IMG/VR virus record: IMGVR_UViG_3300047557_004483
Location: 64,001-112,252 of that record
Strand: one strand, 5' to 3'
Origin: a virus
Lineage: Duplodnaviria > Heunggongvirae > Uroviricota > Caudoviricetes
DNA: 48,252 nucleotides
In this document: piece by piece, positions 16,077-48,252 of the stretch
Layout: the number at the start of each line of letters is the position of its first letter
How positions within the stretch are numbered: the first letter of the stretch is position 1
Program-made: the position numbers and the translations under genes
Notes under the pieces: generated by a model
What the model was told of the DNA's origin: nothing
Databases searched by the model: none
Seen by the model: the letters and a program-made list of their open reading frames with translations, nothing else

Positions 16077-18479
16077 TTAACAGAAGACTTGTGAACCACC
16101 AGGACTCAATACTGCCCCTGTTACTTGTCCTGTGCTTGGATTAACATAATATAATCCTGTTTGATACGAACAATAACTGTATCCGAGTAAAGGTGATGGT
16201 GAAGTTGGATTGCCTCCAAAAATAGTAACTCCTACTCCGAATGATGGTGCATTTATAATTCTTAATGGTGAAGAAGTTTCATCAATACATGCTAAGGATG
16301 TTGTTTCACCAACACCTAAAACTACTTGACTATAGTTTTGTGTTGCACCCCCATCTCCGAAGCTTATCGAATGTTGTAATCCACCAGACGAAGTACTATT
16401 AGTATTAACCGTACAACACTGACATCCGTTGACAACTCCTTGTAGAGGTAGTACTGATATTTCTTGTTGTAAGTTAGTTACACAACCGTTAGATGCTGAA
16501 ACTCCTGAAGTTATTGATAGACTTGAGTCACTCACACCACTAACCACAGTTCCTGCCGACATTGTAACATTATAAGATTGTAGAATGGTTCTTGTTTGAG
16601 TGGTGAATGGTGAACAATTTGGTCTTCCGTTAACCGATGTATTAGTATTTGTAGAGTTTGGATTAACTAATCCTGACCCAACATATACCTGACTTACCGA
16701 TGAAGTAACACCTGAACCTGGAGAATTCATAATTTGTATTGTTTCAATATTCAATGCGAAACTCAAGGTAGTTCCAACAGGTATCGGTGGAGTAACATTC
16801 ACCTGCCAAGTTGCTCTACGAAGATTTCTACTTAGATTTTGTAAGTTAGTATTTGCAATTGAAAGAGAATATGTTGTAGGTGCTCCTGTTTGAGTTATAA
16901 CTACGCTTCTTTGAATTGTTAATCCTGTTGTATCTTTAACAACAACATTATATGTGTTTGGTGAAAGTCCGTTGAAAACACTCGAAGTTGTATATGTCGT
17001 ACCACCATTTATCGAATATTGATATGGCGGTAATCCTCCTGAGGTTACCACACTGATGCTTCCATCATTACCACAATCACTATTTTCTGAGTTAATTACC
17101 ACAGTCATAGGTGTATATGTTGGACAAGTACCTTCCAATACTACAACTTGCGGTATTGGGGTTGTTGTTGCTCCAACGACAGTCCAATTAGAAAGTGGTG
17201 GTGTTGAAGTTGTTGTACTTACAACAGTTCCTCCATTTACTGAAAGTCCATTTATTTGCCACCTTTGGTTCGAAACGTTCCAAGCCATAGTATATGAACC
17301 TGACACCCAAACAGGTCTTGTGTTGACTATTCCGTTGTAAGTAAATTGTATTGGTGCTAATGCTGGAACCAAACCACTTATCAACACACATAGTGATGAA
17401 TAAACTGGTTGAGTTGATGGTGTTGGGGTTAATGTCATTGTTGGCGTTGGTGACGGTGCAATAGCATCAACAGAACAGAATGTGTTAGCTGTATAGTCAC
17501 CATAGAAGTCAACAACAACAGCTTCGTATGTTCCTTCTTTCAATCCAGTTCGTGTAGCATTTTTACTATTACTATCTGCCCAATAAATTGAATATGGACT
17601 TGTTCCACCTGTAATGTCCAAAGTCAATACACCATCAAAACTTGAAGCATTACTTGGTTGAACTAAAGTTCTACAAGTAACTCCCATATCAAATAATGTA
17701 AATACAGAACAATTATTCTGTAAAGTTATTACCTGTGTTGGTGCTGGGGTTCTTGTTGGTGTCAGTGTTGGTGTGGGTGAAGATGTTGTCGTAGGTGTTA
17801 TTGTTGGTGTTGGACTTAAAGTAGGTGTGATACTTGGGGTTGGAGTTGGGGTTGGGGTTCCACAACTTGTAGTTGCTACAATACCTGAATTAGTAATACC
17901 TAAATTAGGTCTTTGCGGGTTATAAATTATTACAGTACCAACATCGGTCCCTGAAATAAATGCACCACAACAATCAGTATAATAATGAGAACCAGTTGTT
18001 GTACCTGAAACACAAAACAATGTAGTCGTAGTTGGGGTAATCGAAGGTGTCGGTGTATTTGATGATGTCACAGTTGGTGTAGCAGTTCGAGTAGGCGTTA
18101 ATGTTGGTGTTCGAGTTTGGGTATTTGTCGGGGTTAAAGTGGGTGTTGTAGTAGTTGTGGTTGTTGGCGTAGGTGTTGGTGTTGGAGTTTCAGTTGGTGT
18201 TGGGGTTGGACAACAACTTATTGTTGTATTTGAAGCAGTCGATTGTCCTGCAGCCGGACTATCATTTTTATAGTAGAAAGAACTCGGAGAAGAACTTCCT
18301 GTGACACAAATATCACTTGGGTAGGTTCCGGCAACTGTATATGACCTATCAAAAGGAATTCCGTTACAATCAACGTAAGATATATAGACGGTATTATTGG
18401 GGAACGAGGAGTTACCCGTTGCATCATCCAAGTCCGCTTGAGCAATTATTACGTCATATAATGTACAGTTACAGGCCAA
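16077..18479 (-). CDS. Putative fibre/adhesin with PT linkers and SprB-like repeats, 800 aa
   Basis: TTG start; PT tracts; DGVLTLDITGGTSPYSIYW and DGSISVVTSGGLPPYQYSINGG..FNGLSPNTYNVVVKD repeats. Confidence 0.7.
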   Translation of the reverse strand: MACNCTLYDVIIAQADLDDATGNSSFPNNTVYISYVDCNGIPFDRSYTVAGTYPSDICVTGSSSPSSFYYKNDSPAAGQSTASNTTISCCPTPTPTETPTPTPTPTTTTTTTPTLTPTNTQTRTPTLTPTRTATPTVTSSNTPTPSITPTTTTLFCVSGTTTGSHYYTDCCGAFISGTDVGTVIIYNPQRPNLGITNSGIVATTSCGTPTPTPTPSITPTLSPTPTITPTTTSSPTPTLTPTRTPAPTQVITLQNNCSVFTLFDMGVTCRTLVQPSNASSFDGVLTLDITGGTSPYSIYWADSNSKNATRTGLKEGTYEAVVVDFYGDYTANTFCSVDAIAPSPTPTMTLTPTPSTQPVYSSLCVLISGLVPALAPIQFTYNGIVNTRPVWVSGSYTMAWNVSNQRWQINGLSVNGGTVVSTTTSTPPLSNWTVVGATTTPIPQVVVLEGTCPTYTPMTVVINSENSDCGNDGSISVVTSGGLPPYQYSINGGTTYTTSSVFNGLSPNTYNVVVKDTTGLTIQRSVVITQTGAPTTYSLSIANTNLQNLSRNLRRATWQVNVTPPIPVGTTLSFALNIETIQIMNSPGSGVTSSVSQVYVGSGLVNPNSTNTNTSVNGRPNCSPFTTQTRTILQSYNVTMSAGTVVSGVSDSSLSITSGVSASNGCVTNLQQEISVLPLQGVVNGCQCCTVNTNSTSSGGLQHSISFGDGGATQNYSQVVLGVGETTSLACIDETSSPLRIINAPSFGVGVTIFGGNPTSPSPLLGYSYCSYQTGLYYVNPSTGQVTGAVLSPGGSQVFC

Positions 18480-18492
18480 TTGTTCTTTTTAT

Positions 18493-18505
18493 AATAAATA
18501 ACAAG
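18493..18505 (-). promoter_or_regulatory. CTTGTTATTTATT putative phage (late) promoter
   Basis: Identical 13-mer also at 38082-38094; upstream of the TTG at 18479. Confidence 0.6.
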
Positions 18506-18534
18506 TTTTTCTTTTTTATGAAGTCAAAAGAATA

Positions 18535-21500
18535 TTATACACTACAACTATCACCAGGAGCTGACCAAAAACTACCACCTGCTGAAGATGGAAAACCATT
18601 AACGATTATGTAAATACTGCCGACACTCCTTGCACACACAGGATTACTTGGTGTAACAGTACCCCTATTTAACGTTTGATTAACTCCACTACAATCTACA
18701 TATTCAAAATAAACACCACTTTCAGAGTTATCTATATCAGTTTGGTCAGCAGTTGCAATATATTCGAAACATGGAATTGGTGTTGATGATGGAGTTTCAG
18801 TCGGAGTTGGTGTTGAAGTTTCTGCCGGAGTTTGACTTGTTGTAACTGTGACCGTTGGAGTAATCGTTGGGGTTGTTGTAATTGTTGGTGTAGGAGTTTG
18901 TGATGGACAAGTAGAACAATTTGTCACTGCCAAAACTTGACCATTAGTACCAATTTGTATTGAGTATTCAGTCGGAGCACCCCAAGTTGTTTTAAACCAT
19001 TGACTATTTCCGTTGAACAAGGTTGTAAGGTTGATATCTTGATAAACAATGTCATTAACTGTTGGCGTAGAGTCTGTTGGATTGACATATCTAGTTTGTG
19101 AGTAAGTTGTCAATCTACAAGCCACACAATCATCGTTTTGTGGTGTTGATAATTGAATTGCTGAACCCAATGGAGTTGTTGTAGGTGTTATTGTTGGAGT
19201 AACAGTATTAGTTGGTGTTATTGTTGGTGTAGTTGTAACAGTAGGTGTTGGAGTCAAAGAAGGTATTGTACTACAATCAACAACATCAGATATCAATCCT
19301 CCAGTACCAATTCTAACTGCCCATGATGAACCACCTCTAAACATTTTATGATACTGTTCTCCACCATCGTAGAATGTTGTAAGTGTCGATTCATTGTAAA
19401 CATAAATTCCAGTCTGTGGTGTTGTATATGTTGGGGGCAAATATTTCACAGTTCCACCAAGAACACCATTTCTACAAGCATTTTCTGCCGTAGTGAAGTT
19501 GGTTGGGTCTAAATTATATTGAATTCCTGGACTTGTTGGTGTAGGTGTTGTTGTAGGTGTCGCAGTATTAGTTGAAGTGATTGTAGGTGTTGTTGTTGGA
19601 GTTATTGTATTTGTCGGTGTTAATGAATTGGTAGGAGTTATCGAAGGTGTTGCTGTTCTTGTAGGTGTTGCAGTGACCGTAGGTGTTGGAGTTGTAGTGA
19701 CTGTAGGTGTAGGAGTTAGTGAAGGTATTGTACTGCAATCAACCACATCAGATATTAATCCTCCTGTACCAATTCTAACCGCCCAAGATGAAGCACCTCT
19801 GAACATTTTATGATACTGGTCTCCACCATCATAAGTTGCCGTCAGGTTTGAATCATTATAAACAATAATTCCGGTCTGTGGTGTTGTGTATGTAGGTGGT
19901 AGGTATTTCACGGTTCCACCAAGAACTCCATTTCTACAAGCATTTTCAGCTGTTGTGAAGTTAGTTGGGTCTAAATTATATTGAATTGCCGGACTTGTTG
20001 GTGTAGGTGTCACTGTTGGTGTTCTTGTAATTGTTGGGGTCACAGTTCTTGTTATAGTTGGAGTTACTGTATTGGTAGGTGTGATACTATTTGTCGGTGT
20101 AGATGTTATTGCCGGTGTATTTGTAGGGGTTGGAGTTGCAGTCACGGTAGGAGTAGGAGTTACACTTGGACAAGTTGAACAATCTTTAACCGCCAATACG
20201 ACTCCTGATGCACTTATCTGAATAGAATATTGTGTTGCATTTGGACTCCACGAAGTTTTGAACCATTGACTTGCACCATTGAATACGTTTGTCAAAGTAG
20301 AGTTAGTGTAAACAACATCATTCACTGATGGTGTGGTATCAACAGGACTAACATAACCAACAGTACTATACGTCGTCAATCTACATGCAACGCACTCATC
20401 ATTCTGAGCTGTAGCTAATTGGATTTGAGTTCCAGGTGAAGTCACTGAAGGCGTAGGTGTCCCTGTCCTTGTTGGTGTTGAAGTATTTGTTGGCGTAACA
20501 GGAGGTGTTGCAGTCCTAGTTGGTGTTATACTCGGAGTCACTGTTGGTGTAGATGTTATTGTTGGTGTTTGAGTAGGAGTTGATGTTGGCCTCACGCAAG
20601 AAGTAAATGTTCCTGCACTATACAATGTTTTATTTATCGGATTTTGTGATGTATAACCGGTGATTGAAACACTTGTTATTTGTCCGTTATAAGCTTCAGG
20701 TAGTTCTAATAGTTTAGATGATTCTGAGCCTTGTATTGATATTGTGTAAGAACTATCGAAAGTTGAAGCGGTATAAATCGCAGCAACAAATTGAACCCCG
20801 TATCCACTGTTTGTTGTATCTCCCGATATTGTTTTTATTATGAAATTTATACCTGAACCAGTGAGTGTACAAACTTGTTCTTGGTCTATTAATAAAGTAT
20901 TTGACCTAAAGTAGAAAAAACTCTCCTCTAAGGTTAAAATTTCATTGTAGTAGAAAGATTCTGCTTCTTCGTAGGTAGTAGCAATTCCATTATTAGTTGT
21001 ATAAGTATAAAAAGTATCTGCAGAAACGGGTGTTCTAACAAAACCTCTTTTAATTTCTGAGCTATTATAAAATTGTGAAGTTCCCCACTTTTTAGGGACA
21101 AGAATCGATTCCTCAGGTTGTGCAGAACTTGTATACCATCCACTCGTGAAGTCTTTTTGAGTTTGTATTACATTTTTAGTTCCACCTGTTAATGTTGATG
21201 TTACTGTTGTGCTGGCGGAAGAGGTCATTATGAAGATATCTTCAACTGTCCCTGATAAGACGAGAGCAAATTCTCTATAGTTTGTTTCAGTTTCATATGC
21301 ATAATATCCGCTCAGAACTTGACTAAATCCATCAGAGTCCAAATATATCTTTTTACCAATTGTTAAACCTGATAAATTTGTATTATCGTAAAAACATGTT
21401 ACCTCTCTCGGTAAATCTTCAATCTTTATTTCGTGGGAAAAAACAAATATTCCACCAACCGTATTGGAATTGTAAGTATAACTTGCAAAGGTTGGTTGAG

Positions 21501-24147
21501 TATCTGCGGTAACTGTATTGAAAAATCTTTGTGCTTGTTCATCCGCATCTACCTGCGAAATTTCTGAAGTAAAAAATCCTTGCTCGAGTTCAAACTCATT
21601 CGGAAGAGGAATGTTCATTTCTCCTATCGTATCAACGCCACCATATGTTGTACCATTAATAGAATTACTTTGATAAGTTGGTAAAGTTGTATACCTGTCG
21701 GGCACACCTGAGACTAAAGGTAACAAAAATAAGTCACCTATTATGGTAATATTTGTCGATGGAGAATCTGGAAGTATACTGTATTGTCTTGGTGTTCTTG
21801 TGGCCGTATATGATACTTCTTTGTGAGTGACAGTTCCTGAAGAAAGTGTGTAAAAATACGCACCGTCACATACATAACCCGTCGGAACGGTACTTGTAAA
21901 GAATCTATCATAATATAAAGTACTTCCTGTAAATATGTACGGTGTGTTGGTGGTCAAAACTCGTAGTTCTTTACAACATTCTGTAATTAGCTTGTTTAAT
22001 CTCAAAGTCCACGCAATTATCCCTAAAACAATAAGAACAACTGCAACTATTATAGCAATTTTGGGATTACTAACACACGCGGTAACTACTTTGTCAATTA
22101 TTTGTATTTTTCCTGTTCTTCCTCCATTCCAGTTTCCTATTTTCATTGCATTTCTTCTCTGTATCCTTTGAGCTTTTTGAGGACTTATAGTTCCGTTTCT
22201 ATATCCTCCTCCACCCGTCACAACGACTTTCAATACTAGTAATCCCGCAACAACTGCGGCGGTTCCAATTATCGTATTTATTATACCAAATGCATTATTT
22301 CTCATTGCAGTTTCCAAGCCGTCATACTTTGTACGAGCACCTGTAAAATTGTCTAAATAAGAATTCAATAAGTTAGTATAAGCATTTCCAAATTTTACGA
22401 TTGCATATTCAGTACCTGTTACAACATAACAATTGTTGTTGGCTGCCGGGTCTTCAACATCAATCAGATTGAAAAACTTATCATTGGATTGAGCTTTTAC
22501 TGTGTCTAATCCCATATAGTATCTATACCCTGCCGGTTGAATAACATTCGCTTGGAGTACCTTGTCACGTATCACTCCCATATCCGCAACCATGTGAACA
22601 CAGGTGGGTAATAGTCTTCGTCCAGTTGCAGGTGTTTCTATAATTTGGTTTGTAAAAAGAGAGGTTATTTTTTCTACGTCAGCATATCTTTTGAAAGCCT
22701 TTTTAGTTATTTTATATTGTGTTGTTGTTCCCCAATCCCTTCTAAAAGGGGAACCCACTTTATAGGTTGCACCACTTACAGAGTACCAGTAAGGAAATGC
22801 TGGTTGAATGAAATAATTATCGTTGAATAATACAGTGCTGTTTTTGGTCCAAGAAGCTAATGGAGTTATAGAATAAACTTTAGTTGTAAGTCTAGGACTA
22901 ATAATTGAATCATAAGCCGAGTATACGTGTAATCCAGCGTTATATTTGTAAATGGGAATTCCAGTACAACTTGAACTTATAGTTGTAGTAATTTGGGGTC
23001 CCAAATTTTCAGCTTGTCCTTTACCTAAACAAATTTTTACTTTCAACAATCCACTTCTAGGAGGAATAACTCTGAAGGTAACACTACTTACAGATGTATC
23101 TATCCTATATAAACCATCTTCGTATTGTGGAATGAAAAAAGGAGTCTGCGACACCGGAGTATCAGAATATGATACTTCACCAGGAGCTTGGACTGTTCTG
23201 CTAAATGCATCATCTTCGAAGGTTACATAAGTATAAAAAAGTGCAGGTGCGGTTTTGGTTATGGTAATACTATATATAGAATTTGAACCGCCTGGAAATT
23301 CTATGGTCGCACAATGTATCGAATATTGTTTAAAAGAATATTCACCAGCAATAAAAGTGTCATTTGTTCTCTCTTCCGTCTCGATTAATGGGTTTATATA
23401 TGTATATCCTGTTGGATTGTGTGTATATGTCGACGTTCCACTACAAGATATCAACGCACAATTATTGTTACAAATACCTATCAAAGTTTGTGTAAATGTT
23501 GAACCATCGTAATACCAAACTAAACCTCTAGTACGACCACCAACGTCTGGCGGAACAATTCCTGAGTTATCTCCCCAATATCTGTAATACCCTGTTGGAA
23601 GAGGGATTGTAAGTTGGTCATCTAAAAACCAAACACCTTCATAAAAAGGGAAACCGACATTCCCATCTGTAACAAGTGCATATACTTTGAAGAACTCCGT
23701 ATCGATGCAATCACAAGTGTCTAAAAAAGTAGTACCGCTACAAAAAGTACCTTCCACTAAGTTAGTACTACAGTCTAACCCAATATTTAACTGACCTGTA
23801 GTTCCACCTGAAGTGGTTATTTCAAGAGTAATATAATTATTTTGACCAGGATTTTCACCAAAATCTAAAAAGTGAATCAAATCTCTAGATGAAGTAATGT
23901 TTCCCAAGTTCCATGTTTGTCCTGTAACTTGAACATTGTCTCTATAATATATTATAGAAATGTTGACTGAGGAACCATTGTTAGATATATAATCGAGTGG
24001 GATTAAAATAAATTCTTTATTAACATCCACAACCAAAAATTGTATATAGGTTGTAGAAGTACCTGTCCATTTAAACTCTTGGACACTACCACACTCATTT
24101 GTTAAATCAGTTCCTACGGGGGGACAATAGACTGTTACTTCATTCAT
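18535..24147 (-). CDS. Large modular putative virion protein (1870 aa) with hydrophobic hairpin, DUF5977-like motif and duplicated Cys-bounded domains
   Basis: Long ORF with PT linkers, an A-B-B-A arrangement of duplicated domains and two long hydrophobic segments near residues 620-710. Confidence 0.75.
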   Translation of the reverse strand: MNEVTVYCPPVGTDLTNECGSVQEFKWTGTSTTYIQFLVVDVNKEFILIPLDYISNNGSSVNISIIYYRDNVQVTGQTWNLGNITSSRDLIHFLDFGENPGQNNYITLEITTSGGTTGQLNIGLDCSTNLVEGTFCSGTTFLDTCDCIDTEFFKVYALVTDGNVGFPFYEGVWFLDDQLTIPLPTGYYRYWGDNSGIVPPDVGGRTRGLVWYYDGSTFTQTLIGICNNNCALISCSGTSTYTHNPTGYTYINPLIETEERTNDTFIAGEYSFKQYSIHCATIEFPGGSNSIYSITITKTAPALFYTYVTFEDDAFSRTVQAPGEVSYSDTPVSQTPFFIPQYEDGLYRIDTSVSSVTFRVIPPRSGLLKVKICLGKGQAENLGPQITTTISSSCTGIPIYKYNAGLHVYSAYDSIISPRLTTKVYSITPLASWTKNSTVLFNDNYFIQPAFPYWYSVSGATYKVGSPFRRDWGTTTQYKITKKAFKRYADVEKITSLFTNQIIETPATGRRLLPTCVHMVADMGVIRDKVLQANVIQPAGYRYYMGLDTVKAQSNDKFFNLIDVEDPAANNNCYVVTGTEYAIVKFGNAYTNLLNSYLDNFTGARTKYDGLETAMRNNAFGIINTIIGTAAVVAGLLVLKVVVTGGGGYRNGTISPQKAQRIQRRNAMKIGNWNGGRTGKIQIIDKVVTACVSNPKIAIIVAVVLIVLGIIAWTLRLNKLITECCKELRVLTTNTPYIFTGSTLYYDRFFTSTVPTGYVCDGAYFYTLSSGTVTHKEVSYTATRTPRQYSILPDSPSTNITIIGDLFLLPLVSGVPDRYTTLPTYQSNSINGTTYGGVDTIGEMNIPLPNEFELEQGFFTSEISQVDADEQAQRFFNTVTADTQPTFASYTYNSNTVGGIFVFSHEIKIEDLPREVTCFYDNTNLSGLTIGKKIYLDSDGFSQVLSGYYAYETETNYREFALVLSGTVEDIFIMTSSASTTVTSTLTGGTKNVIQTQKDFTSGWYTSSAQPEESILVPKKWGTSQFYNSSEIKRGFVRTPVSADTFYTYTTNNGIATTYEEAESFYYNEILTLEESFFYFRSNTLLIDQEQVCTLTGSGINFIIKTISGDTTNSGYGVQFVAAIYTASTFDSSYTISIQGSESSKLLELPEAYNGQITSVSITGYTSQNPINKTLYSAGTFTSCVRPTSTPTQTPTITSTPTVTPSITPTRTATPPVTPTNTSTPTRTGTPTPSVTSPGTQIQLATAQNDECVACRLTTYSTVGYVSPVDTTPSVNDVVYTNSTLTNVFNGASQWFKTSWSPNATQYSIQISASGVVLAVKDCSTCPSVTPTPTVTATPTPTNTPAITSTPTNSITPTNTVTPTITRTVTPTITRTPTVTPTPTSPAIQYNLDPTNFTTAENACRNGVLGGTVKYLPPTYTTPQTGIIVYNDSNLTATYDGGDQYHKMFRGASSWAVRIGTGGLISDVVDCSTIPSLTPTPTVTTTPTPTVTATPTRTATPSITPTNSLTPTNTITPTTTPTITSTNTATPTTTPTPTSPGIQYNLDPTNFTTAENACRNGVLGGTVKYLPPTYTTPQTGIYVYNESTLTTFYDGGEQYHKMFRGGSSWAVRIGTGGLISDVVDCSTIPSLTPTPTVTTTPTITPTNTVTPTITPTTTPLGSAIQLSTPQNDDCVACRLTTYSQTRYVNPTDSTPTVNDIVYQDINLTTLFNGNSQWFKTTWGAPTEYSIQIGTNGQVLAVTNCSTCPSQTPTPTITTTPTITPTVTVTTSQTPAETSTPTPTETPSSTPIPCFEYIATADQTDIDNSESGVYFEYVDCSGVNQTLNRGTVTPSNPVCARSVGSIYIIVNGFPSSAGGSFWSAPGDSCSV

Positions 24148-24158
24148 ATATACTATAA

Positions 24159-24464
24159 TTATGGCGTAGGATTATTAATAACTGCGTATGCATTTCCGAG
24201 TAAAGTTTGTTGTAAGTTCAGAATTCTTATAATATCGTTATATTGTTGTTGGTCAACATCTGCAGGAAATTCCCCATCCCAAATATATTGTCCTTCTTTA
24301 TCACTGTATAACAATAAATTAGTTTTTCTAGCCTGTTGCAAATACAAACTAAAATGAAGTTGGAAATAGTTTACATTTTCTGAGATTTGAAACCATACTA
24401 CTTTTCCAACATTTCCGAAGTAGCTATTATATGTCACTTGAGGTATTGATAATGGTGTTGCCAT
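24159..24464 (-). CDS. Hypothetical protein (101 aa), possible fibre accessory
   Basis: Tightly spaced ORF between two giant structural genes. Confidence 0.7.
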   Translation of the reverse strand: MATPLSIPQVTYNSYFGNVGKVVWFQISENVNYFQLHFSLYLQQARKTNLLLYSDKEGQYIWDGEFPADVDQQQYNDIIRILNLQQTLLGNAYAVINNPTP

Positions 24465-24474
24465 TTTTTTTTAT

Positions 24475-30228: not shown

Positions 30229-30244
30229 CTCGTTTTGTTACAAA

Positions 30245-30251
30245 ATAAATA
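30245..30251 (-). promoter_or_regulatory. TATTTAT putative phage (late) promoter motif
   Basis: GTATTTATT upstream of the ATG at 30228. Confidence 0.55.
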
Positions 30252-30269
30252 CTTCGAATAATGATTATA

Positions 30270-34484: not shown

Positions 34485-34708
34485 TAGATTACTGTTGTTA
34501 CTCCTGTTATTGAACAATTGTTAAAATCAATCGCCTTTATCATATATGATGTTCCTGTATTATAAGGTTCTGGTATATCAAACACATAAGGAAATTCTGA
34601 AGCAGTTATAGTATTAATATAAAAACAAGAATCCCCCGTCGGTTGACAAACATAAATATCAAATGGTGTTTGTCCTGTTATATTATTTATTGTTGCCTGT
34701 ATTGCCAT
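34484..34708 (-). CDS. Small Cys-containing beta protein (74 aa), paralog of the downstream gene's N-terminal domain
   Basis: [41 protein letters not shown] aligns with [41 protein letters not shown]. Coupled overlaps at both ends (TGATG, TAATG). Confidence 0.8.
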
Positions 34709-37700: not shown

Positions 37701-38064
37701 ATCCTGTTGATGGTGATATTGTTACAGTGGGTGTTGGTGTTGGTGTTGGGGTCTCACCAGGTCCTCCTCCTCCTGTTGTTGAGGTAGGCGTTTGGGTGGG
37801 TGTTGAAGTTGCTTGAGGTGTTGGTGTCACACACCCAAAACACGGCTCATTACTTTGTGTTACGTTGATACAATCAATGGTTGTATTATCACAAGCATTC
37901 CCGAAAAAAAAGATACTGTTTTCCGCAGCACAAGGAATATTAGTTTGTTGTCCATTACCCGGAGCAGATATTGAAGATGGGGTGTCATCACATGCAGTAT
38001 AAAAAATAGTAACCGCACTTGAATAATAATTGACTATTTCATATGTATAACAACATAACGCCAT
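34708..38064 (-). CDS. Cys-rich modular putative fibre protein with PT linkers (1118 aa)
   Basis: Multiple small Cys-bounded domains separated by PT tracts. Confidence 0.75.
36965..37240 (-). repeat. 36-bp near-perfect tandem coding repeat ([12 protein letters not shown]), about 7 copies
   Basis: gtaggtgt(c/a)ggtgtttcagtattagttggtgtaatt starts at 36965, 37001, 37037, 37073, 37109, 37145 and 37199; the copy at 37145 is partial. Confidence 0.9.
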
Positions 38065-38081
38065 TAATAGTATTTCTTTTC

Positions 38082-38094
38082 AATAAATAACAAG
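38082..38094 (-). promoter_or_regulatory. CTTGTTATTTATT putative phage (late) promoter
   Basis: Identical to 18493-18505; upstream of the ATG at 38064. Confidence 0.6.
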
Positions 38095-38172
38095 AATTTT
38101 AGTTTTATTAGAAATAATACATATTATTTCAGAATATTAAACGAGATTGAAACTTACTTTCGATTTATATTA

Positions 38173-40047: not shown

Positions 40048-40229
40048 TATTTATTTTTTCTAGAATTCTTTGATTCTTTTATTTTATAGATTTTTAACAA
40101 TCTCAAAGAGTCCAAATAATGCTTTTCCAACTTATCCAATTCTTCAATTGGTAACCCCGATTCGCAAGCACGATTGTATTGCTCCTCCGCTTCTTGAATA
40201 ATACTTTTGATTGTTTTCAGAAGTTTCAT
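40047..40229 (-). CDS. Small hypothetical protein (60 aa)
   Basis: TAATG overlap with the LamG gene; two TATTTAT motifs upstream. Confidence 0.65.
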   Translation of the reverse strand: MKLLKTIKSIIQEAEEQYNRACESGLPIEELDKLEKHYLDSLRLLKIYKIKESKNSRKNK

Positions 40230-40234
40230 ATCAT

Positions 40235-40259
40235 ATAAATATGAATACTCACATAAATA
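40235..40259 (-). promoter_or_regulatory. Two TATTTAT motifs (40235-40241, 40253-40259)
   Basis: Both lie in the 40-nt gap at the head of the structural block. Confidence 0.55.
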
Positions 40260-40269
40260 ATACGGGAAC

Positions 40270-41112
40270 TTATGTCCTTGATATCATTGAAATTCCATCT
40301 GATGAATGATGTGTGAAGTTATTCTCTTTTATCCAATTAGTAATTAACTCTTTATCTTCTTCACTCAAATTGAAATCCTCATATATTATAAAGTTAGGAA
40401 TATTTTCTTTTGTCAAACTCAAAATAAGTTTTACATCCAATCCTTCAACATCCATGTGAATCCAATCTAAATTCCCACCAATAGATTTAATTAACTCATT
40501 TAATGATATAGAGTTTTTAACTGATGAATTAACTTCTTCCGTTTCCCAACTTCTTATCACCCTTTCAACTACGGAGTTTGTGTACCCCCTACCTCCCTCA
40601 AAAAATTCTACCTCACCTCCGTTAGGTGTAATAATTTCTTTTATTAAAGTAATTCCTGTTCTACCTTTGTAATTTTTTTCTAATTTTTCATATTGTTTGT
40701 CTGAAGCCTCAACCAAATAAACATCACTCATAAAATTCCTAACCAAAGGAACCCATTCGCCAAATTCACCATCATGTGTTCCTATCGCCAATCCTTTTGG
40801 GGTTTTCCCTGAATTAACTAATCCTTTACAGTACAACCATAAAGATTTATAAAATATGGAACCATGTTGAAAAATATCCCAATGATACTTAGTAACAAAT
40901 TTATTTTGATTATCTAATATGATGACATCATAGATTTCGTTTTGTCCAAATTTTGCCCACATGTTTTCATACAGCTTGGTAGACCAAACAACCTCTTTTG
41001 AAATTGCTTGTTTAATCTGAATCGTTAAGGGTAATTGGTCTTCTTTAAATACTTTTTTAAGTTCTCCTGTGGTTACTACTATTTTTCCACCACTATAGTC
41101 AATATTAATCAT
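40270..41112 (-). CDS. FkbM-like SAM methyltransferase with an extra N-terminal beta domain
   Basis: GLAIGTHDG (motif I variant), YLVEAS, FFEG, ISLNELI and WIHMDVEG. Confidence 0.78.
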   Translation of the reverse strand: MINIDYSGGKIVVTTGELKKVFKEDQLPLTIQIKQAISKEVVWSTKLYENMWAKFGQNEIYDVIILDNQNKFVTKYHWDIFQHGSIFYKSLWLYCKGLVNSGKTPKGLAIGTHDGEFGEWVPLVRNFMSDVYLVEASDKQYEKLEKNYKGRTGITLIKEIITPNGGEVEFFEGGRGYTNSVVERVIRSWETEEVNSSVKNSISLNELIKSIGGNLDWIHMDVEGLDVKLILSLTKENIPNFIIYEDFNLSEEDKELITNWIKENNFTHHSSDGISMISRT

Positions 41113-41654
41113 AAATGCTTATCAATAAATTCATCTATTTTATCTGACCACATTAACATAGCTTCAGTTTTGATTCTATCTTCAGTCCAATCCCACCATT
41201 TGATTTTTAATAATGAGTCAATCTGTCTTTCATTGAATCTGTACTTAACTATCTTAGCCGGATTTCCAACAACAATTGCGTATGGTGGTATATCTTTAGT
41301 GACAACCGAATTTGCACCAACAACACTTCCGTTATGGATTTTTACTCCTGACATTATTGTAGATTTTGCACCAATCCATACATCGTTTTCAATTATAATA
41401 TCACCCTTACATGAAGGATGTCCCATATTCATATGTAAGTTTGCTATTTCAGGAGTAACGGGTCCCCATAATTGTGAGCTTGTTGTTATCCAATCAGGTC
41501 TGTGATTTGCATGTAAGAAAAAATTACAATCCCTACCTATAGAGTTGTATTTACCAAGATGAATGTGAAAATCATCACTCCAACTTATAATATTAACATT
41601 TCTGTCGAAGTAAGTTCCTCTGTCAGCGTGCCAAAGATGTAAATTTTCAATCAT
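41109..41654 (-). CDS. Hexapeptide-repeat O-acetyltransferase (CatB/Vat-like family)
   Basis: LGKYNSIG, NHRPDWITT, KGDIIIENDVWIG..IMSGVKI..GSVVGANSVVTKDIPPYAIVVGNPAKIVKYRF and KWWDW. Confidence 0.92.
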   Translation of the reverse strand: MIENLHLWHADRGTYFDRNVNIISWSDDFHIHLGKYNSIGRDCNFFLHANHRPDWITTSSQLWGPVTPEIANLHMNMGHPSCKGDIIIENDVWIGAKSTIMSGVKIHNGSVVGANSVVTKDIPPYAIVVGNPAKIVKYRFNERQIDSLLKIKWWDWTEDRIKTEAMLMWSDKIDEFIDKHL

Positions 41655-41655
41655 T

Positions 41656-42582
41656 TTAAATCTTTTCTAAAGTATTATGTTTAATTTTTTCCAAAATTTG
41701 AGAAATGTCATGAACTTCATTTTGATATTTTAGTTTGACTTTTTTTAAGTTAATTTTGTTGAACCCTAAATTAATTATATCTAAATTATTTATAGTATAC
41801 TCCGTCTCTTTATCTTGGATAATCAAAGAAACTTTTTGTTCATTCATATTATCGTAAAATAATAATTTAATTGGTTCGAGTGTCTCATCGTTTTTTTCAA
41901 TAAAAAATTTCAAACCCTTTATTGGTGAAAAATTAAAAAAATCGTGTTCCTGATAATAGTAAATTTCATCTTCAACAGGAGTTTGTTCAATAGTATAATT
42001 TAATATTTTTTCTTTATTGTGTAACCAAACGAAAGCGTCCGCACCTCTGAGTTCGATATAACTTTCTTTAGTTATTTTTGACGCAAAATTTTGTAGATTT
42101 TCCTTGTTGAAAATCATGTAATGAAGCCCGACATCCCAAATCTTATTTTGTCTTTTTGACGGATAAACTGAGTTTGTTTTATCCGAATAAAATCCAGAGA
42201 TGACATTATCGTCAATTTTCAAATCGTATATGATGTGAAAGAACTGTTCATATCCTAAATTGAGTGAAATTTCACTAAGTTGTTTCACTTGATAAAGTCC
42301 TGCAAATCCATAATCAGGATTAGTGGCTGCAATTTTATAGTTTGACATTTCGGAAGATAGTATTCTCCAATGATACATTGACCTCTCGGGCCATTCTAAC
42401 ACCAAATTATCTTTAGTCAGAAAAAAATAATCACATAAGTCAACTATTTGTTTTTCCAAATAAAAGGGACTAATTAAAACCACGTCAATATTGTGACTTT
42501 TGATTGTTCTAATATTTTTTTCTAATACTTCAAGTTTTTTTTTGGTATCACAAAACGAACTTATTAGGGCTACTTTCCTCAT
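41656..42582 (-). CDS. Uncharacterised GT-A-like protein (paralog of 43199-44161)
   Basis: Rossmann-like N-terminus and LGYEQFFHIIYD, shared with its paralog. The GT role is inferred from context. Confidence 0.55.
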   Translation of the reverse strand: MRKVALISSFCDTKKKLEVLEKNIRTIKSHNIDVVLISPFYLEKQIVDLCDYFFLTKDNLVLEWPERSMYHWRILSSEMSNYKIAATNPDYGFAGLYQVKQLSEISLNLGYEQFFHIIYDLKIDDNVISGFYSDKTNSVYPSKRQNKIWDVGLHYMIFNKENLQNFASKITKESYIELRGADAFVWLHNKEKILNYTIEQTPVEDEIYYYQEHDFFNFSPIKGLKFFIEKNDETLEPIKLLFYDNMNEQKVSLIIQDKETEYTINNLDIINLGFNKINLKKVKLKYQNEVHDISQILEKIKHNTLEKI

Positions 42583-42587
42583 TTATA

Positions 42588-43178
42588 CTAATTTTGATTT
42601 TCAATTATACCAATACCTCCCCAATGATTATTACTCATAAACCAATATTTGTTGACATCCATATCATTCCAAAAATTACTAACAAAACAAGCTGCCTTTG
42701 CGTGGAACTCAGATTCTTTTATATCATGAAATCCAATCAACCCACCATTTTTAACAAACTCCTTATACATGAAATAATCTAATTTTACCCCGTTTTCTGA
42801 ATGGTCTCCATCAATAAATAAAAAATCTAACTTTTTATCTCCGAGTATATTTTTTATTTGACGATGAGTTTTTAATGAATGAGAATCCCCGTTTATTATA
42901 TAAACCTCGTCCCCCATTTCTTTAAGTCTTAAGTCTCTTTTATCCACATCAAAATTTGTTGTTCCCCATGGACCATGAGCCCAGTCCAAAGAAATTTTAA
43001 TCCCTTCTGTCCCAGTAATTCTACTCCAACAAATAAAAGTACCCCCTTCATTTGTCCCAATCTCCATAAAATTTTTTATTTTTTTAGTTTTCAAAAAATC
43101 TAAACAACTCAAAATTTCATATCTGTTTTGAGCCATCCCCAATTGGTAAGCCTCTTCTATAATATATAAATTATCCAT
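42588..43178 (-). CDS. Class I SAM-dependent methyltransferase (Methyltransf_24-like)
   Basis: FMEIGTNEGGT, GDSH, LDFLFIDGDHS and GGLIGFHD. Confidence 0.88.
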   Translation of the reverse strand: MDNLYIIEEAYQLGMAQNRYEILSCLDFLKTKKIKNFMEIGTNEGGTFICWSRITGTEGIKISLDWAHGPWGTTNFDVDKRDLRLKEMGDEVYIINGDSHSLKTHRQIKNILGDKKLDFLFIDGDHSENGVKLDYFMYKEFVKNGGLIGFHDIKESEFHAKAACFVSNFWNDMDVNKYWFMSNNHWGGIGIIENQN

Positions 43179-43198
43179 ATGTTTTCTTTATAAAAAAA

Positions 43199-44161
43199 TT
43201 ATTCGGAGTTTTTGAATTTTATAAAATTTTTACGAGTAAAGTTTTCATACCCTATCTCATTGAAATCCCAATAGTGAGAAATTTCGTTGTTAATTATTAA
43301 CGTTAAATTATCTATTTTATCATATGATTCTAATTCTCTGAAAATCCAAATTTTTGGTTTAATTTCTATACTTATTAAACTTTTTTTATTTATGATTAAG
43401 CTTACTTCGAATGTTTTGTCTGAATCACTATTCCAACCGAAAAAAAACATTTTCTTACTTGATTCGTGATATATTGGTACCATCCAACGATTCAATGCAA
43501 TTTCATCATGTAACCCAACAAGAATATTGTGTTTTTTCAATTGCTCTTTATCTTTACATAATACAGGTTGCGATTTATCAATTAAACTTTTTTCATATTC
43601 TTCGGAAAGTTTAGAAGTATTTCCATTAAAAAAATCTAATATTTTTTTATCTGATAGTTCAAACCACTCGTTTGAAATTTTATTCAAATTAAAAGAAATC
43701 GGTGCCGAGGGTAAGGGGAATAATTGTGTAATATAATATATTATATTGTAACTTTCCAGTAAATTGGAGTTTTCTTGTAATTCAAGAAGATTGTTAATTC
43801 TAGAATCATATTCAAAAAAATGAACCTTTTCATAACCTAAACTTTTAGCATAAGATAACCCATGTAATAATAGTTTTATCATGGCAAATGCATGATTCCC
43901 TTTGAACGTTTCGGTGCTAGATATCATGAAACCCTCGTCTTTAAAAACCATTACACTTTTTTGATTTATGTCTGTTAGAATTTTATTTTCGGAATCACAA
44001 ATAACAAAGTTTGATTTTTCAAAAATATCTTTTGGAATGAAAATATGTGTGGATATCATTATATCATACTCCTTATCAATCACATCATTCACTAACTCTC
44101 TTAACATCTGTTCTTTTTTGCTATTTGATGCATGAGAAGTTATTAAAATTAATTCTCTCAT
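43199..44161 (-). CDS. Uncharacterised GT-A-like protein (paralog of 41656-42582)
   Basis: LILITSH..KEQMLREL..IMISTH and LGYEKVHFFEYD. Confidence 0.55.
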   Translation of the reverse strand: MRELILITSHASNSKKEQMLRELVNDVIDKEYDIMISTHIFIPKDIFEKSNFVICDSENKILTDINQKSVMVFKDEGFMISSTETFKGNHAFAMIKLLLHGLSYAKSLGYEKVHFFEYDSRINNLLELQENSNLLESYNIIYYITQLFPLPSAPISFNLNKISNEWFELSDKKILDFFNGNTSKLSEEYEKSLIDKSQPVLCKDKEQLKKHNILVGLHDEIALNRWMVPIYHESSKKMFFFGWNSDSDKTFEVSLIINKKSLISIEIKPKIWIFRELESYDKIDNLTLIINNEISHYWDFNEIGYENFTRKNFIKFKNSE

Positions 44162-44265
44162 TGATTTTTATGTATTTAAAATTCTTCCGTAATTCTGTGT
44201 ACCCTTTGTACCATAATGTTTAAATTATAAATCATTAACATTATATTTTCAATAAAAGATTTCAA

Positions 44266-46560
44266 ATGTTTATCCCTAAAATATACGCTCACGGTTCTTA
44301 TATAGGAAATACTGGATATAATCATCATACAAGGGATTTTTTCAGAAAATTAAGTTTACATTGTAATATCAAGGTAAGAAACTTTACTGTGGGTTCTACA
44401 TGGGATGGTTATAATTTATACCCCCACGATAACGAACCATACATAAATGATGTAGACAAATCCATCTTATACCAACAAATACTTTGGTCAAAAGACAAAA
44501 CTAGAGAAAATTTTTCTATATACCCGTCAATAGATAAAGAATTCTCACACGATGTTAATTTAGTTTTATGTGAAACAAATCATTACATATTCTACGATGA
44601 TTATGTGGGACCAAAAATTGCATATAACGTTTGGGAGACAACTTTACAACCTGAACAATTCTTCAATAGATTAAAAGAGTTTGATGAACTTTGGGTTCCT
44701 TCAAAATGGCAAAGAGATTGTACAATAGCACAAGGTTATGACCCCAATAAAATAAAAGTAGTTCCTGAAGGAGTTGATGACAAAGTTTTCTTCCCAAACC
44801 CACAAGTTAAAAACCAGCTTACGTCAGATGGTAGGTTTAAGTTTTTCTTAGCAGGAAGGTGGGACTATAGAAAATCAATAAAAGAAATTATAGAAACATT
44901 TATCAATACGTTCGATAAGGATGAACCTGTAGATTTATTAGTTTCAGTAGACAATCCGTTTTCGAATGATGGAATGAAAACCACAGAAGAAAGATTAAAA
45001 TTCTACGGGTTGGAGGATGATAGAATCAAAGTTTTACATTTCCCTTCGAGAACAGATTACGTAGACATATTGAAAAGTTGTCATTGTTTTGTTTCTTGTG
45101 CAAGGTCTGAGGGTTGGAATCTTCCTTTAATTGAATCTATGGCTTGCGGTACGCCTTCAATTTATTCGAATTGTTCAGGTCAGTTAGAATTTGCTGAAGG
45201 AAAAGGTATACCTGTCAATATTTTAGGTGAACAACCAGCATCTAATGGAACTTACAATCACTTCAATGAAATGGTTGGAAACTACTACGAACCTGACTTC
45301 ATAGACCTATCTTTCAAAATGAGAATGGTTTATAAAAACCACAGTGAGTATAAACAAAAAGCAATCAAAGAATCTGAAACCATTCGTGAGAATTTCAATT
45401 GGGATAAAATTGGAAAGTTGGGTTATGAAACTATCAAAGAATTTGTGTCAAAATCAAAATACAAACCAAAGAAAAAAATGGAAACAAATAAAATTCAAAT
45501 AAATTATATAGATGGTCCAAAAGTTGAAATTCTGGGACCTAACGAAAATTTGTATAAGGTAGAGTTTATTAATAAAACCACAGGAGAAGTTTTACACTCT
45601 GAAACAATTAAAAATAACATGTGGGTTGCTTGCGGTAAAAAATATTTCATACCTTGGGTCATAAAAATAAATGATGTAGTTTATGATGAATTCAATTTGG
45701 AAAATAAAAGAGTTTTGATATCGATAGAATCCAAATCAATCGGTGACACTTTATCTTGGGTTCCATATGCTGTTGAGTTTCAGAAGAAATATAAGTGTCA
45801 CGTTATCTTATCTTCTTTCCATAACCAATGGTTTAAAAATACAGAACCTTATAAAGACATAGAATTTATTGAACCGGGTCAATCCACGCCTTGCTTTGTT
45901 GTGTATAGAATTGGGTGGTTCAAAAATAATGAAGGTAAATTTAAAAACACAAATTTAAATCCAACTCAAGTTAATACAATACCTCTACAAAAAACTGCTA
46001 CTGATATTTTAGGATTGGATTACATCGAAGTTAACCATGGTATCAAATTCAAACCAAAAAAGAAACCAATAGATAGTAAATACATAGTCATTGGTCCCAT
46101 ATCAACCGCAGGTTTGAAAGAATGGCCCTATGAAAATTGGTCAGAATTATCAAAATTATTAAATAACGAAGGTTATATAGTTGTCTCACTAACAAAAGAC
46201 AAATTCAATTTACCTAATGTTGCAAATTATGTTACAAGTGATTGGGATGAAATTTTCAATTTTTTACATCATTCAGAATTTTTTATAGGTTTGAGTTCAG
46301 GTTTATCTTGGGTCAATTGGGCATTAGGTAAACATACAGTAATGATATCAGGTTTTAGTTCTGATGACCATGAATTCCAAAATAATGTTACGAGAATATC
46401 AAATCAGGTGTGTATTAAGTGTTGGAATGACCCCGTATTTACATTTGATGGAGGTGATTGGAATTGGTGTCCGGTATATAAAGGGACAGAAAGACAACAC
46501 ATATGTCAAAAATCAATAACAGTAAGTCAAGTATTTAATAAAATTAAAAACCTTTTATAA
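44266..46560 (+). CDS. Fusion of GT4 glycosyltransferase (about aa 1-400) and TibC/AAH-type autotransporter strand-loop-strand O-heptosyltransferase (GT-B, about aa 405-764)
   Basis: GT4: VWET, VPSKW, VPEGVD, GRWDYRK, EGWNLPLIE (EX7E). Heptosyltransferase: DGPKVEI..GKKY N-terminal domain, KRVLISIESKSIGDTLSWVPY, PLQK...ILGL, FIGLSSGLSWVNWALG..VMISGFS and a C-X2-C-X15-C-X11-C motif. Confidence 0.88.
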   Translation: MFIPKIYAHGSYIGNTGYNHHTRDFFRKLSLHCNIKVRNFTVGSTWDGYNLYPHDNEPYINDVDKSILYQQILWSKDKTRENFSIYPSIDKEFSHDVNLVLCETNHYIFYDDYVGPKIAYNVWETTLQPEQFFNRLKEFDELWVPSKWQRDCTIAQGYDPNKIKVVPEGVDDKVFFPNPQVKNQLTSDGRFKFFLAGRWDYRKSIKEIIETFINTFDKDEPVDLLVSVDNPFSNDGMKTTEERLKFYGLEDDRIKVLHFPSRTDYVDILKSCHCFVSCARSEGWNLPLIESMACGTPSIYSNCSGQLEFAEGKGIPVNILGEQPASNGTYNHFNEMVGNYYEPDFIDLSFKMRMVYKNHSEYKQKAIKESETIRENFNWDKIGKLGYETIKEFVSKSKYKPKKKMETNKIQINYIDGPKVEILGPNENLYKVEFINKTTGEVLHSETIKNNMWVACGKKYFIPWVIKINDVVYDEFNLENKRVLISIESKSIGDTLSWVPYAVEFQKKYKCHVILSSFHNQWFKNTEPYKDIEFIEPGQSTPCFVVYRIGWFKNNEGKFKNTNLNPTQVNTIPLQKTATDILGLDYIEVNHGIKFKPKKKPIDSKYIVIGPISTAGLKEWPYENWSELSKLLNNEGYIVVSLTKDKFNLPNVANYVTSDWDEIFNFLHHSEFFIGLSSGLSWVNWALGKHTVMISGFSSDDHEFQNNVTRISNQVCIKCWNDPVFTFDGGDWNWCPVYKGTERQHICQKSITVSQVFNKIKNLL

Positions 46561-46928
46561 TGGAAATACAAGTTGGACTTGGAGAAATTATTGATAAATT
46601 ATCAATATTAATGATTAAAAAAGAAAACGTCGTTGACCCTATTAAATTGAATAATATAAATAAAGAATTAGAATACCTAAACCGAATTGTTGAAAGTCTA
46701 CAAATTGATGCTGAGGATATTTTTTTATTGAAAGAAATTAATAAAAAATTGTGGCAAATTGAAGATGATATCCGTAACAAAGAAAGAAATAAGGTATTTG
46801 ACGATGAATTTATATATCTCGCAAGACAGGTGTATATCACTAACGATTTAAGAGCTGATGTGAAAAGGAAAATAAATGAAAAATATTCCTCAGACTTTAT
46901 TGAGGAAAAATCGTATTCTGAATATTAA
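46560..46928 (+). CDS. DUF6165-like protein
   Basis: [48 protein letters not shown] and EEKSY. Confidence 0.85.
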
Positions 46929-48250
46929 TCAGTTGGATATTTGTCAACATATTCAATATCGAACCTTTCGATATCTTTTCTTTCTGCTAAAATTATAAAA
47001 TAAGTATTTATAACTCCAGTTTCTGATTCGATTAAGATTTTATTATCTAAAATACTTCTTACATAGTGTACTGTAGGAGTCCCTTTGGGCGTCAATTGAA
47101 CTGTCATTGAGTCTTCATATACCAAATTAACCCAATAATCTGGTAGATATATTAAATTTTCAGTAGTATACCCTCTTAGATAAACGCCATGTTCAGGCCC
47201 TTCGAGCACACCATATCTGAGTCTGAACCCTTTTTTTGTTGGGTGTATTATATCGAAGGATTTTGTTGTTGCAACTATATCTCCAACCACAGTTAATACT
47301 GTTCCATCGAATGTCATGTTTGGTTCCCCGTTCAAAGTACCAGGTGTATTACTACCCGTAATTACTCTATTATCAGCGTTGTTATTTATAGTCGCAGTTC
47401 CAGGAGCACCTTGAGCACCTTGAGGTCCTTGTGGACCAACTGCTCCTTGCGCACCTTGACCTCCTTGAGCACCCTGAGGACCTTTAGCACCTGTAGGTCC
47501 AATAGCTCCTTGAGCTCCTTGTCCTCCTTGAGCACCTGTAGGTCCAATAGCTCCTTGAGCTCCTTGTCCTCCTTGAGCACCTGTAGGTCCAATTGCACCT
47601 TGAGCACCTTGAGGTCCTTGTGGACCAACTGCTCCTTGAGCACCTTGTCCTCCTTGAGCACCCTGGGGACCTTTAGCACCTGTAGGTCCAATAGCTCCTT
47701 GAGCTCCTTGTCCTCCTTGAGCACCTGTAGGTCCAATAGCTCCTTGAGCACCTTGTCCTCCTTGAGCACCTGTAGGTCCAATAGCTCCTTGAGCTCCTTG
47801 TCCTCCTTGAGCACCTGTAGGTCCAATTGCGCCTTGAGCACCTTGAGGTCCTTGTGGACCAACTGCTCCTTGAGCACCCTGAGGACCTTTAGCACCTGTA
47901 GGTCCAATAGCACCTTGAGCACCTTGAGGTCCTTGTGGACCAACTGCTCCTTGAGCACCTTGTCCTCCTTGAGCACCTGTAGGTCCAATAGCACCTTGAG
48001 CACCTTGAGGTCCTTGTGGACCAACTGCTCCTTGAGCACCTTGACCTCCTTGAGCACCTGTAGGTCCAATAGCACCTTGAGCACCTTGAGGTCCTTGTGG
48101 ACCAACTGCTCCTTGAGCACCTTGTCCTCCTTGAGCACCTGTAGGTCCAATAGCACCTTGAGCACCTTGAGGTCCTTGTGGACCAACTGCTCCTTGAGCA
48201 CCTTGACCTCCTTGAGCACCTGTAGGTCCAATAGCACCTTGAGCACCTTG
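46925..48250 (-). CDS. Collagen-like (Gly-X-Y) fibre protein, 5'-partial, with phage fibre C-terminal domain
   Basis: The frame starting at 48250 reads [27 protein letters not shown]... without a stop into [33 protein letters not shown]...[29 protein letters not shown]. The track's 46925-47335 ORF is its C-terminus. Confidence 0.9.
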
Positions 48251-48252
48251 AG
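47396..48252 (-). repeat. Gly-X-Y coding repeat with 81-bp higher-order unit
   Basis: caactgct recurs at 47941, 48022, 48103 and 48184 (81-bp period; unit [27 protein letters not shown]). Confidence 0.9.

Follow-up and report, generated by a model that had tools for sequence, protein, structure and literature searches.

What do the sugar-handling enzymes encoded by a large uncultured lake bacteriophage act upon? A stretch of 48,252 nt from such a phage (positions 64,001 to 112,252 of IMG/VR record IMGVR_UViG_3300047557_004483; hereafter the window) carries, at 40270–46928, a cluster of seven enzyme genes that includes a protein glycosyltransferase of the TibC/Aah type. The cluster is flanked on one side by genes for proline/threonine-rich (PT) proteins and on the other by a gene for a collagen-like fibre. 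A preliminary description of the window proposed that the phage glycosylates its own fibres, and every component that it listed was found in place. We consider that the cluster is best explained as a phage-encoded cytoplasmic protein O-glycosylation module, which most likely coats the virion fibre encoded beside TibC. This reading, in which the glycosylation is predicted, has in our estimate a probability of about 0.55. In favour of the earlier proposal are the true TibC homology, the solubility of the enzymes, the placing of the module within virion structural gene blocks in relatives and a statistical link to collagen-like fibres; the PT tracts as acceptor were not supported.

The key enzyme is a fusion of a GT4 glycosyltransferase with a TibC/Aah-type (BAHT) domain, as the preliminary description had stated, and the latter is a genuine homologue. 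It scored 233.5 bits against NCBIfam TIGR04414 (equivalog cut-off 200) over model positions 10–373 of 374, and aligned with PDB 4RAP (E 1.2e-39) over TibC residues 39–384. The match to Pfam TibC_1st, which describes the N-terminal beta-barrel, reached 21.9 bits (cut-off 27), in a region that the TIGR04414 and PDB alignments do cover. Inspection of the alignment revealed that the catalytic base of TibC, Asp-110, is kept as D494, and that the phosphate/heptose donor contacts Thr-226, Lys-230 and Trp-305 are kept as T614, K618 and W682; these four residues were invariant across 8 phage homologues. The iron finger is also kept one-to-one, C716, C719, C735 and C747 corresponding to the Fe ligands Cys-339, 342, 358 and 370 of TibC with the spacing C-x2-C-x15-C-x11-C. 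The GT4 part matched Pfam Glycos_transf_1 with 50.8 bits (cut-off 26.4) and contains an EX7E motif (E282/E290). In the proposed mechanism, a structural protein of the phage would receive its first sugar on hydroxyl side chains from the TibC/Aah-type domain; the glycan would be extended by the fused GT4 and two GT-A-fold proteins and tailored by two methyltransferases and an acyltransferase.

Co-occurrence of the TibC gene with long repeat proteins across IMG/VR, a check suggested in the preliminary description, held for one type of collagen but not for PT tracts. Collagen was called GSS/GTS (Ser/Thr-saturated and Pro-free) when it had more than 1.2 Ser+Thr per triplet. In a reverse test, IMG/VR was scanned for three repeat kinds and the whole records were then searched with TIGR04414. 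Of 47 records with GSS/GTS collagen, 17 had TibC, including 5/5 of those at least 90% complete and 8/10 of those at least 60% complete, versus none of 48 records with ordinary Pro/Ala collagen (0/8 complete ones; p 1e-6 for the difference between the two sets). Among records with (TPTxTx)n tracts it was present in 2/45 (0/4 complete ones). In a forward test, TibC loci of at least 15 kb (n=43) were inspected within a 10-kb radius and compared with controls taken around the Glf gene of the phage. A collagen-like gene was found in 21/43 TibC loci (Ser/Thr-saturated in 12, Ser/Thr-poor in 9) versus 2/34 controls, and after clustering at 70% identity in 8/12 versus 1/10 (p 0.011).

A third comparison was made within a single fibre family, using metagenome contigs anchored on the C-terminal domain of the window fibre and having a downstream flank of at least 6 kb. 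TibC lay beside 15 of 16 fibres with GSS/GTS collagen, versus none of nine without it (p 5e-6). Comparison thus shows the conserved genomic partner of TibC across phages to be a Pro-free GSS/GTS collagen-like fibre, and the partner in this phage group to be, at the level of gene order, the fibre gene that lies tail-to-tail with the TibC operon (Table 1). Since the conserved partner is the adjoining fibre, the most likely job of the module is the sugar-coating of that virion fibre. TibC and Aah modify Ser, not Thr, as determined by electron-transfer dissociation mass spectrometry (PMC4358343), in agreement with a caveat on TibC in the preliminary description, and this published specificity fits the Ser-dominated GSS/GTS repeats.

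Table 1. Features of the window discussed in the text (window positions; PT, proline/threonine-rich).
Feature	Position	Strand	Remarks
Collagen-like fibre	46925..48250	-	5' truncated by contig end; 95 triplets, then 155-residue C-terminal domain
DUF6165 protein	46560..46928	+	31.8 bits versus cut-off 27; start overlaps GT4-TibC stop
GT4-TibC fusion, 764 aa	44266..46560	+	GT4, residues 1-400; TibC/Aah-type (BAHT) domain, residues 405-764
parB320, GT-A-fold family member	43199..44161	-	First gene of minus-strand enzyme operon; placed by alignment A1
Class I S-adenosylmethionine (SAM) methyltransferase	42588..43178	-	Methyltransf_24, 47 bits
parA308, GT-A-fold glycosyltransferase-like	41656..42582	-	Residues 1-205 GT-A; C-terminal beta-sandwich
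Hexapeptide-repeat acyltransferase	41109..41654	-	Nearest class Vat/CatB
FkbM-family methyltransferase, marginal	40270..41112	-	Pfam 23.5 bits versus 22.7
ConA-like/LamG protein, 624 aa	38173..40047	-	One 50-residue PT linker
Modular protein, 1,118 aa	34708..38064	-	Small Cys-rich domains, 370 residues of PT linker
Stalk protein, 1,415 aa	30270..34517	-	1,212 residues of PT repeat stalk
1,917-aa protein	24475..30228	-	490-residue N-terminal domain, 1,074 PT residues, C-terminal Cys-rich modules
1,870-aa protein	18535..24147	-	305 PT linker residues between repeated modules
SprB-repeat protein, 800 aa	16077..18479	-	160 PT linker residues; orthologues in L002, G001 and G003

The fibres of relatives illustrate this pairing. 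The orthologous fibres in L002, L026, L074 (G001), L095, G003 and L522 have 1.8–2.0 Ser+Thr per triplet, and the GSS/GTS fibres adjoining TibC in relatives have the same C-terminal domain as the window fibre. In G001 and G003, both complete relatives, only the TibC-side fibre is of the GSS/GTS type (1.8–1.9 Ser+Thr per triplet), versus 0.28–0.49 in three other fibres of the GAQ type, which correspond to three Peptidase_S74 fibres of the window phage. The latter lie in tandem at 44904–51286 of the full record (L025:10905-17287), are GAQ-type and collagen-like, and each end in a Peptidase_S74 intramolecular chaperone domain. The TibC-side fibre of G003 appears to span the record ends and would then be about 2,000 aa long; PHROG matches for the genes flanking it were uninformative.

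Proximity to the fibre could also have another cause. The module might have different virion proteins as its targets, for example those of the capsid, sheath or tube, and share with the fibre no more than a location in structural or hypervariable regions. Such modification is seen in mycobacteriophages, whose virions carry O-linked glycans on the C-termini of capsid and tail-tube proteins (Freeman et al. 2023, Cell Host Microbe, as cited in PMC12619734). In a marine lineage the module is placed between the head-tail adaptor gene and the tail sheath and tube genes, and it stays between adaptor and sheath with or without a collagen gene; TibC loci lacking a collagen gene within 10 kb, and neighbouring collagens that are Ser/Thr-poor, agree with this idea as well. 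Location alone, however, fails to explain why TibC accompanies GSS/GTS fibres only, both within the fibre family and in the reverse test, and we regard this reading as very unlikely.

No transmembrane segment or signal peptide was detected in any of the seven enzymes, nor in the fibre and most of the PT proteins, and no flippase, polymerase, polyprenol-type gene, membrane glycosyltransferase or integral-membrane O-acetyltransferase was found in the cluster. From their sequences, the cluster enzymes are soluble and without a membrane partner. This bears on a second possibility, that surface glycans of the host (O-antigen or capsule) are remodelled by these enzymes in the course of infection, which would block superinfection. 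Glycosyltransferases encoded among the tail-fibre genes of aquatic myophages are by default read this way in the literature. Those in the hypervariable tail-fibre region of pelagimyophages were taken for host O-chain modifiers in a study where a TibC-type protein glycosyltransferase went unrecognised (PMC7029224). That region resembles the present locus in its aquatic-myophage genomic setting, and marine TibC loci share its layout. GT4, GT-A, methyl- and acetyltransferases are typical of polysaccharide clusters too. Nevertheless, the central enzyme scores above the equivalog cut-off for a family that acts specifically on proteins, the proteins are all soluble with none of the usual membrane components, and the strong and specific link to GSS/GTS fibres would be unexpected, so that a role in host glycan remodelling seems very improbable.

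Still further from the observations is glycosylation of phage DNA, with production of hypermodified bases. GT-B-fold glycosyltransferases do this in other phages, as cited in PMC12619734, and a thymidylate-synthase-family gene occurs in complete relatives. With 324 bits, however, that gene scores as an ordinary ThyA, and about 150 kb separate it from the cluster. Nothing connects DNA modification with a BAHT-type enzyme or with the fibre association; we consider this reading extremely improbable.

Several observations weigh against the fibre beside TibC as the substrate, foremost the composition of the window fibre itself. Its assembled triplets comprise 31 GAQ, 17 GPQ and 12 GPT out of 95, with zero Ser, which amounts to 0.14 Ser+Thr per triplet, below the GSS/GTS threshold. 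No run of at least four G-[STN]-[STN] triplets was found in the whole 112-kb contig. An independent contig, L521, carries the same GAQ/GPT fibre type with TibC 371 bp downstream. Among the 43 loci of the forward test, 22 had no collagen gene within 10 kb and nine had only a Ser/Thr-poor one. Phylogenetic independence is lacking among the compared loci, and the control record sets come from different types of phage. The enzyme also departs from TibC at some positions. Arg-286 of TibC, which contacts adenine N1 of ADP-heptose and gives ADP-sugar specificity (PMC4358343), is replaced by I663, in a column that varies among the phage homologues. Of the beta-hairpin thumb contacts needed for the TibC dodecamer (PMC4358343), Phe-265 and Phe-368 are changed to N651 and H745, and Val-266 is kept as V652; the thumb region is 10 residues shorter than in TibC. 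Neither the contig nor any of three complete relatives yielded a SIS_2/GmhA gene (sedoheptulose-7-phosphate isomerase). Because Arg-286 is replaced and a GmhA-type gene was not found, the donor sugar may be other than heptose. A search for the heptose pathway returned only a small cytidylyltransferase-like gene distant from the cluster. At 38122–38964 of the full record (L025:4123-4965), a small cytidylyltransferase-like and an APS-kinase-like gene lie side by side, and the pair could serve nucleotide-sugar or sulfation chemistry.

The unusual composition of the window fibre is not an assembly artefact, since L521 has the same type and since the repeat is only 70–72% identical in DNA to the phage's other collagen genes, with a longest shared word of 34 nt; a chimeric assembly from those genes was rejected on these grounds. 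The collagen of the preliminary description is real, but its characterisation as GPT-rich was overstated, GAQ and GPQ being the dominant triplets. A further relative, L522, is 84% identical in DNA over a stretch that takes in part of the fibre C-domain, DUF6165 and the TibC gene towards its 3' end. Its TibC part shares 96% protein identity with that of the window, yet its fibre is of the GSS/GTS type. Therefore, the collagen segment has been exchanged recently, whereas the enzyme has hardly changed.

Beyond the contig end, the 5' portion of this gene was not recovered, the Logan contigs of the source samples ending at 47434, the start of the collagen repeat. In public runs, window positions 47435–48252 were represented only by short contigs, with a depth up to tens of times that of the flank, and words of this repeat recur in numerous related collagen genes of the community. 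One collagen-like fibre of a related phage, L113:2-3244, mixes GSS/GTS with GAQ/GPQ segments, so a GSS/GTS segment upstream in the window fibre is possible. Because the assembled fibre is ordinary GAQ/GPQ/GPT collagen without Ser and its 5' part is missing, several acceptors are candidates in this genome: a GSS/GTS segment that went unassembled, the Thr residues of the 12 GPT triplets, or the Pro/Thr proteins encoded nearby.

The last of these candidates was the main substrate in the preliminary description, which saw the PT tracts as mucin-like O-glycosylated stalks accompanying a glycosylated collagen. It gave more than 2500 residues of such tracts; we counted 3,171 at 16077–40047, with 1,391 Thr and 183 Ser, spread over six of the eight genes listed there. 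TPTNTI occurs 135 times in these tracts, and Thr makes up 88% of their hydroxyl residues. Modular proteins with PT linkers are syntenic with the module in all group members examined (L002, L026, G001, G003, L524, L533, L534, L536, L543 and L571), and in fibre-anchored loci of at least 8 kb, related modular PT proteins were found in 6/14 TibC-positive but 0/20 TibC-negative loci. PT tract is about five times as abundant in this phage as in its relatives, whereas Ser has disappeared from its TibC-side fibre. The enzymes and the PT proteins would both be cytoplasmic before assembly.

Outside the group the association vanishes. PT tracts were found in 2 of 97 related viral loci with TibC, both from the window's own group, versus 1/56 control loci, and the reverse test was likewise negative. 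The complete 321-kb jumbo phage genome L402 (IMGVR_UViG_3300031951_000002) encodes five adjoining PT-rich proteins with 1,182 PT residues and no TibC-family gene; the largest of them has 2,305 aa, and their sequences bear no relation to the PT proteins of the window. The PT proteins are, by gene order, constant neighbours within this freshwater phage group, and a possible functional link is inseparable from shared ancestry. PT tracts also serve as plain rigid linkers without sugar. The Ser-only activity of TibC and Aah stands against acceptors that are mostly Thr, and the pairing of a 96%-identical TibC with a GSS/GTS fibre in L522 leaves little room for a change in specificity. We therefore regard PT tracts as the main acceptors as unlikely. 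A related and distinctly unlikely variant is an acceptor switch, in which the module lost its Ser-rich collagen substrate and would now decorate the five-fold expanded Thr-Pro stalks (about 1,400 Thr, in proteins of up to 1,917 aa). If true, it would place mucin-like glycoprotein brushes on a bacteriophage, made by a cytoplasmic family known only for Ser in E. coli adhesins.

The PT proteins may be virion parts, a tentative assignment that draws on their lack of signal peptides, a weak PHROG match to "virion structural protein", and the resemblance of the LamG part of the 624-aa protein to a protein annotated as virion structural in the RefSeq record of Synechococcus phage S-PM2. ESM Atlas matches for the PT proteins were uninformative or at most 0.8. 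Three of them have syntenic orthologues in L002, G001 and G003, with about 500–670 PT residues altogether. The 1,118-aa protein has orthologues in L002, G001, G003 and L571. Orthologues of the 1,415-aa stalk protein in G001, G003 and L002 (213–456 aa) share its N-terminal domain and have only about 60–90 PT residues. For the 1,917-aa protein, no orthologue was found in the complete relatives, and a pattern scan for its N-terminal domain was empty. No phage-database match was obtained for a 719-aa neighbour or for the first 1,180 residues of the 1,870-aa protein. Residues 618–722 of the latter contain two strongly hydrophobic segments (Kyte-Doolittle 19-residue maxima of 2.4 and 3.1) forming a hairpin; the protein is otherwise soluble and without a signal peptide. 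A 74-aa open reading frame (ORF) at 34484–34708 (minus strand), below the 80-aa threshold, encodes on its own a paralogue of the stalk protein's N-terminal domain; its start and the stop codon of the 1,118-aa gene overlap.

The remaining enzymes of the cluster agreed with the preliminary description to differing degrees. Its two paralogous glycosyltransferase-like proteins, parA308 and parB320, had no Pfam, PHROG or NCBIfam match but form one family in alignment A1 (pair identity 19%, E 1e-4), with K16, N59 and Y119-D120 invariant. In an AlphaFold model of parA308 (mean predicted local distance difference test 77), residues 1–205 adopt a GT-A nucleotide-diphospho-sugar transferase fold, which matched glycogenin, A64R, LH3 and GT2/GT8 entries (Foldseek E 4e-5 to 1e-6, probability 1.0, template modelling (TM) score 0.3–0.5). 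A canonical DxD was conserved nowhere in 14 sequences, Y119-D120 being the invariant pair. On the basis of this model and, for parB320, of the alignment, the two proteins are a new GT-A-fold family. Of the two methyltransferases, the first was clear and the second, FkbM-like, was marginal (Table 1), reaching 30.8 bits against TIGR01444 (cut-off 37.7). A resemblance of its N-terminus to the TibC beta-domain was rejected (BLAST E 0.18, hhalign probability 2.9%). The gap between the FkbM and LamG genes is filled by a 60-aa, helical-looking ORF (40047–40229, minus strand), the stop of which overlaps the LamG start. The O-acetyltransferase of the earlier description is present as a hexapeptide acyltransferase; with 122 bits against Vat/CatB equivalogs, below their cut-offs of 300–350, it has only the hexapeptide fold class in common with them. 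The DUF6165 gene, also foreseen, is conserved in L002 and, judged by spacing, in L521 and L522. In two other genomes (G001:C1:312307-313182 and G005:C1:22967-23830), a second, N-terminally short TibC-like gene follows GT4-TibC in the place of DUF6165.

A TibC-family relative is encoded in at least 539 IMG/VR viral contigs. Among the 97 TibC loci, the fusion to GT4 is the rule (82 ORFs), and a parA308-like family member was present in 38 and the parB320-like form in 11. Other fusions were GT4-GT-A-TibC in Microcystis phage Mel-JY01, GT-A (parA-like)-FkbM in L095, and, in the marine lineage, GT4-TibC-PIG-L (L005:8605-12324 and similar; about 1,240 aa, with a PIG-L/LmbE-type de-N-acetylase). In Mel-JY01, a cultured phage, the fusion gene adjoins a Ser/Thr collagen-like frame, which lies on the strand opposite to the annotated one, and a gene annotated as structural protein. 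Since gene fusions join them, the enzymes belong to one pathway. The marine fusion is followed by a Polysacc_synt_2 dehydratase/epimerase, and this gene content hints at an amino-sugar glycan in that lineage.

The window makes up the last 48 kb of a 112-kb record (35% GC, CheckV completeness 37%). Complete relatives of 317–321 kb are collinear with the record through a sigma factor, SbcCD-like genes, primase and RuvC up to the region studied, and matching DNA was found repeatedly in freshwater metagenomes. The SprB repeat points to a possible Bacteroidota host. Promoter and terminator scans of 33000–48252 gave fewer sites than in shuffled sequence and were uninformative on co-transcription. 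Within the literature collection searched, there was no paper connecting TibC/BAHT with phages and no description of phage Mel-JY01.

The closest known systems are the TibC-TibA and Aah-AIDA-I pairs of E. coli (TIGR04414; PDB 4RAP/4RB4; PMC4358343). The phage enzyme shares whole-chain homology, the catalytic Asp, the donor contacts and the four Cys with them, and is similarly a soluble cytoplasmic enzyme encoded beside a long, repetitive, hydroxyl-rich surface protein. In contrast to them, it is fused to GT4 with extension and tailoring enzymes alongside; its candidate substrate is a collagen-like fibre rather than an autotransporter beta-helix, no autotransporter being encoded here; and it has Ile for Arg-286, two of three thumb contacts changed, and no heptose pathway gene found in its lineage.

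BclA of Bacillus anthracis is a collagen-like exosporium glycoprotein whose (GPT)n repeats are O-glycosylated on Thr by enzymes unrelated to the phage TibC. Both are collagen-like filaments with Thr in the Y position able to carry sugar, but the analogy drawn in the preliminary description is weak, GPT amounting to 13% of the window triplets and the comparative partner of the phage enzyme being GSS/GTS. As in giant viruses (Mimivirus fibrils; the PBCV-1 capsid glycosyltransferase A64R, PDB 2P6W), a soluble and host-independent glycosyltransferase set would be encoded by the virus for its own surface proteins. The match of the parA308 model to A64R is at the generic GT-A level (TM 0.37–0.51), there is no sequence relation, and hosts and enzymes differ.

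To our knowledge, experimentally glycosylated phage virions come from mycobacteriophages only. As cited in PMC12619734, mycobacteriophages also encode their glycosyltransferases amid structural genes, but the enzyme family is different, and their glycosylation was shown experimentally whereas that of the present phage is predicted. What is new here is the enzyme family; phage virion glycosylation as a process was already known.

If GSS/GTS fibres are glycosylated, sugar-coated fibres would be common in large aquatic phages. This would bear on host recognition, on virion stability, and on the reading of "auxiliary" glycosyltransferases that are now assigned to host O-antigen remodelling. The window phage, which has retained the enzyme but carries another repeat in place of the Ser-rich one, along with enlarged Pro/Thr stalks, is a natural variant that could be used to probe what the enzyme recognises.

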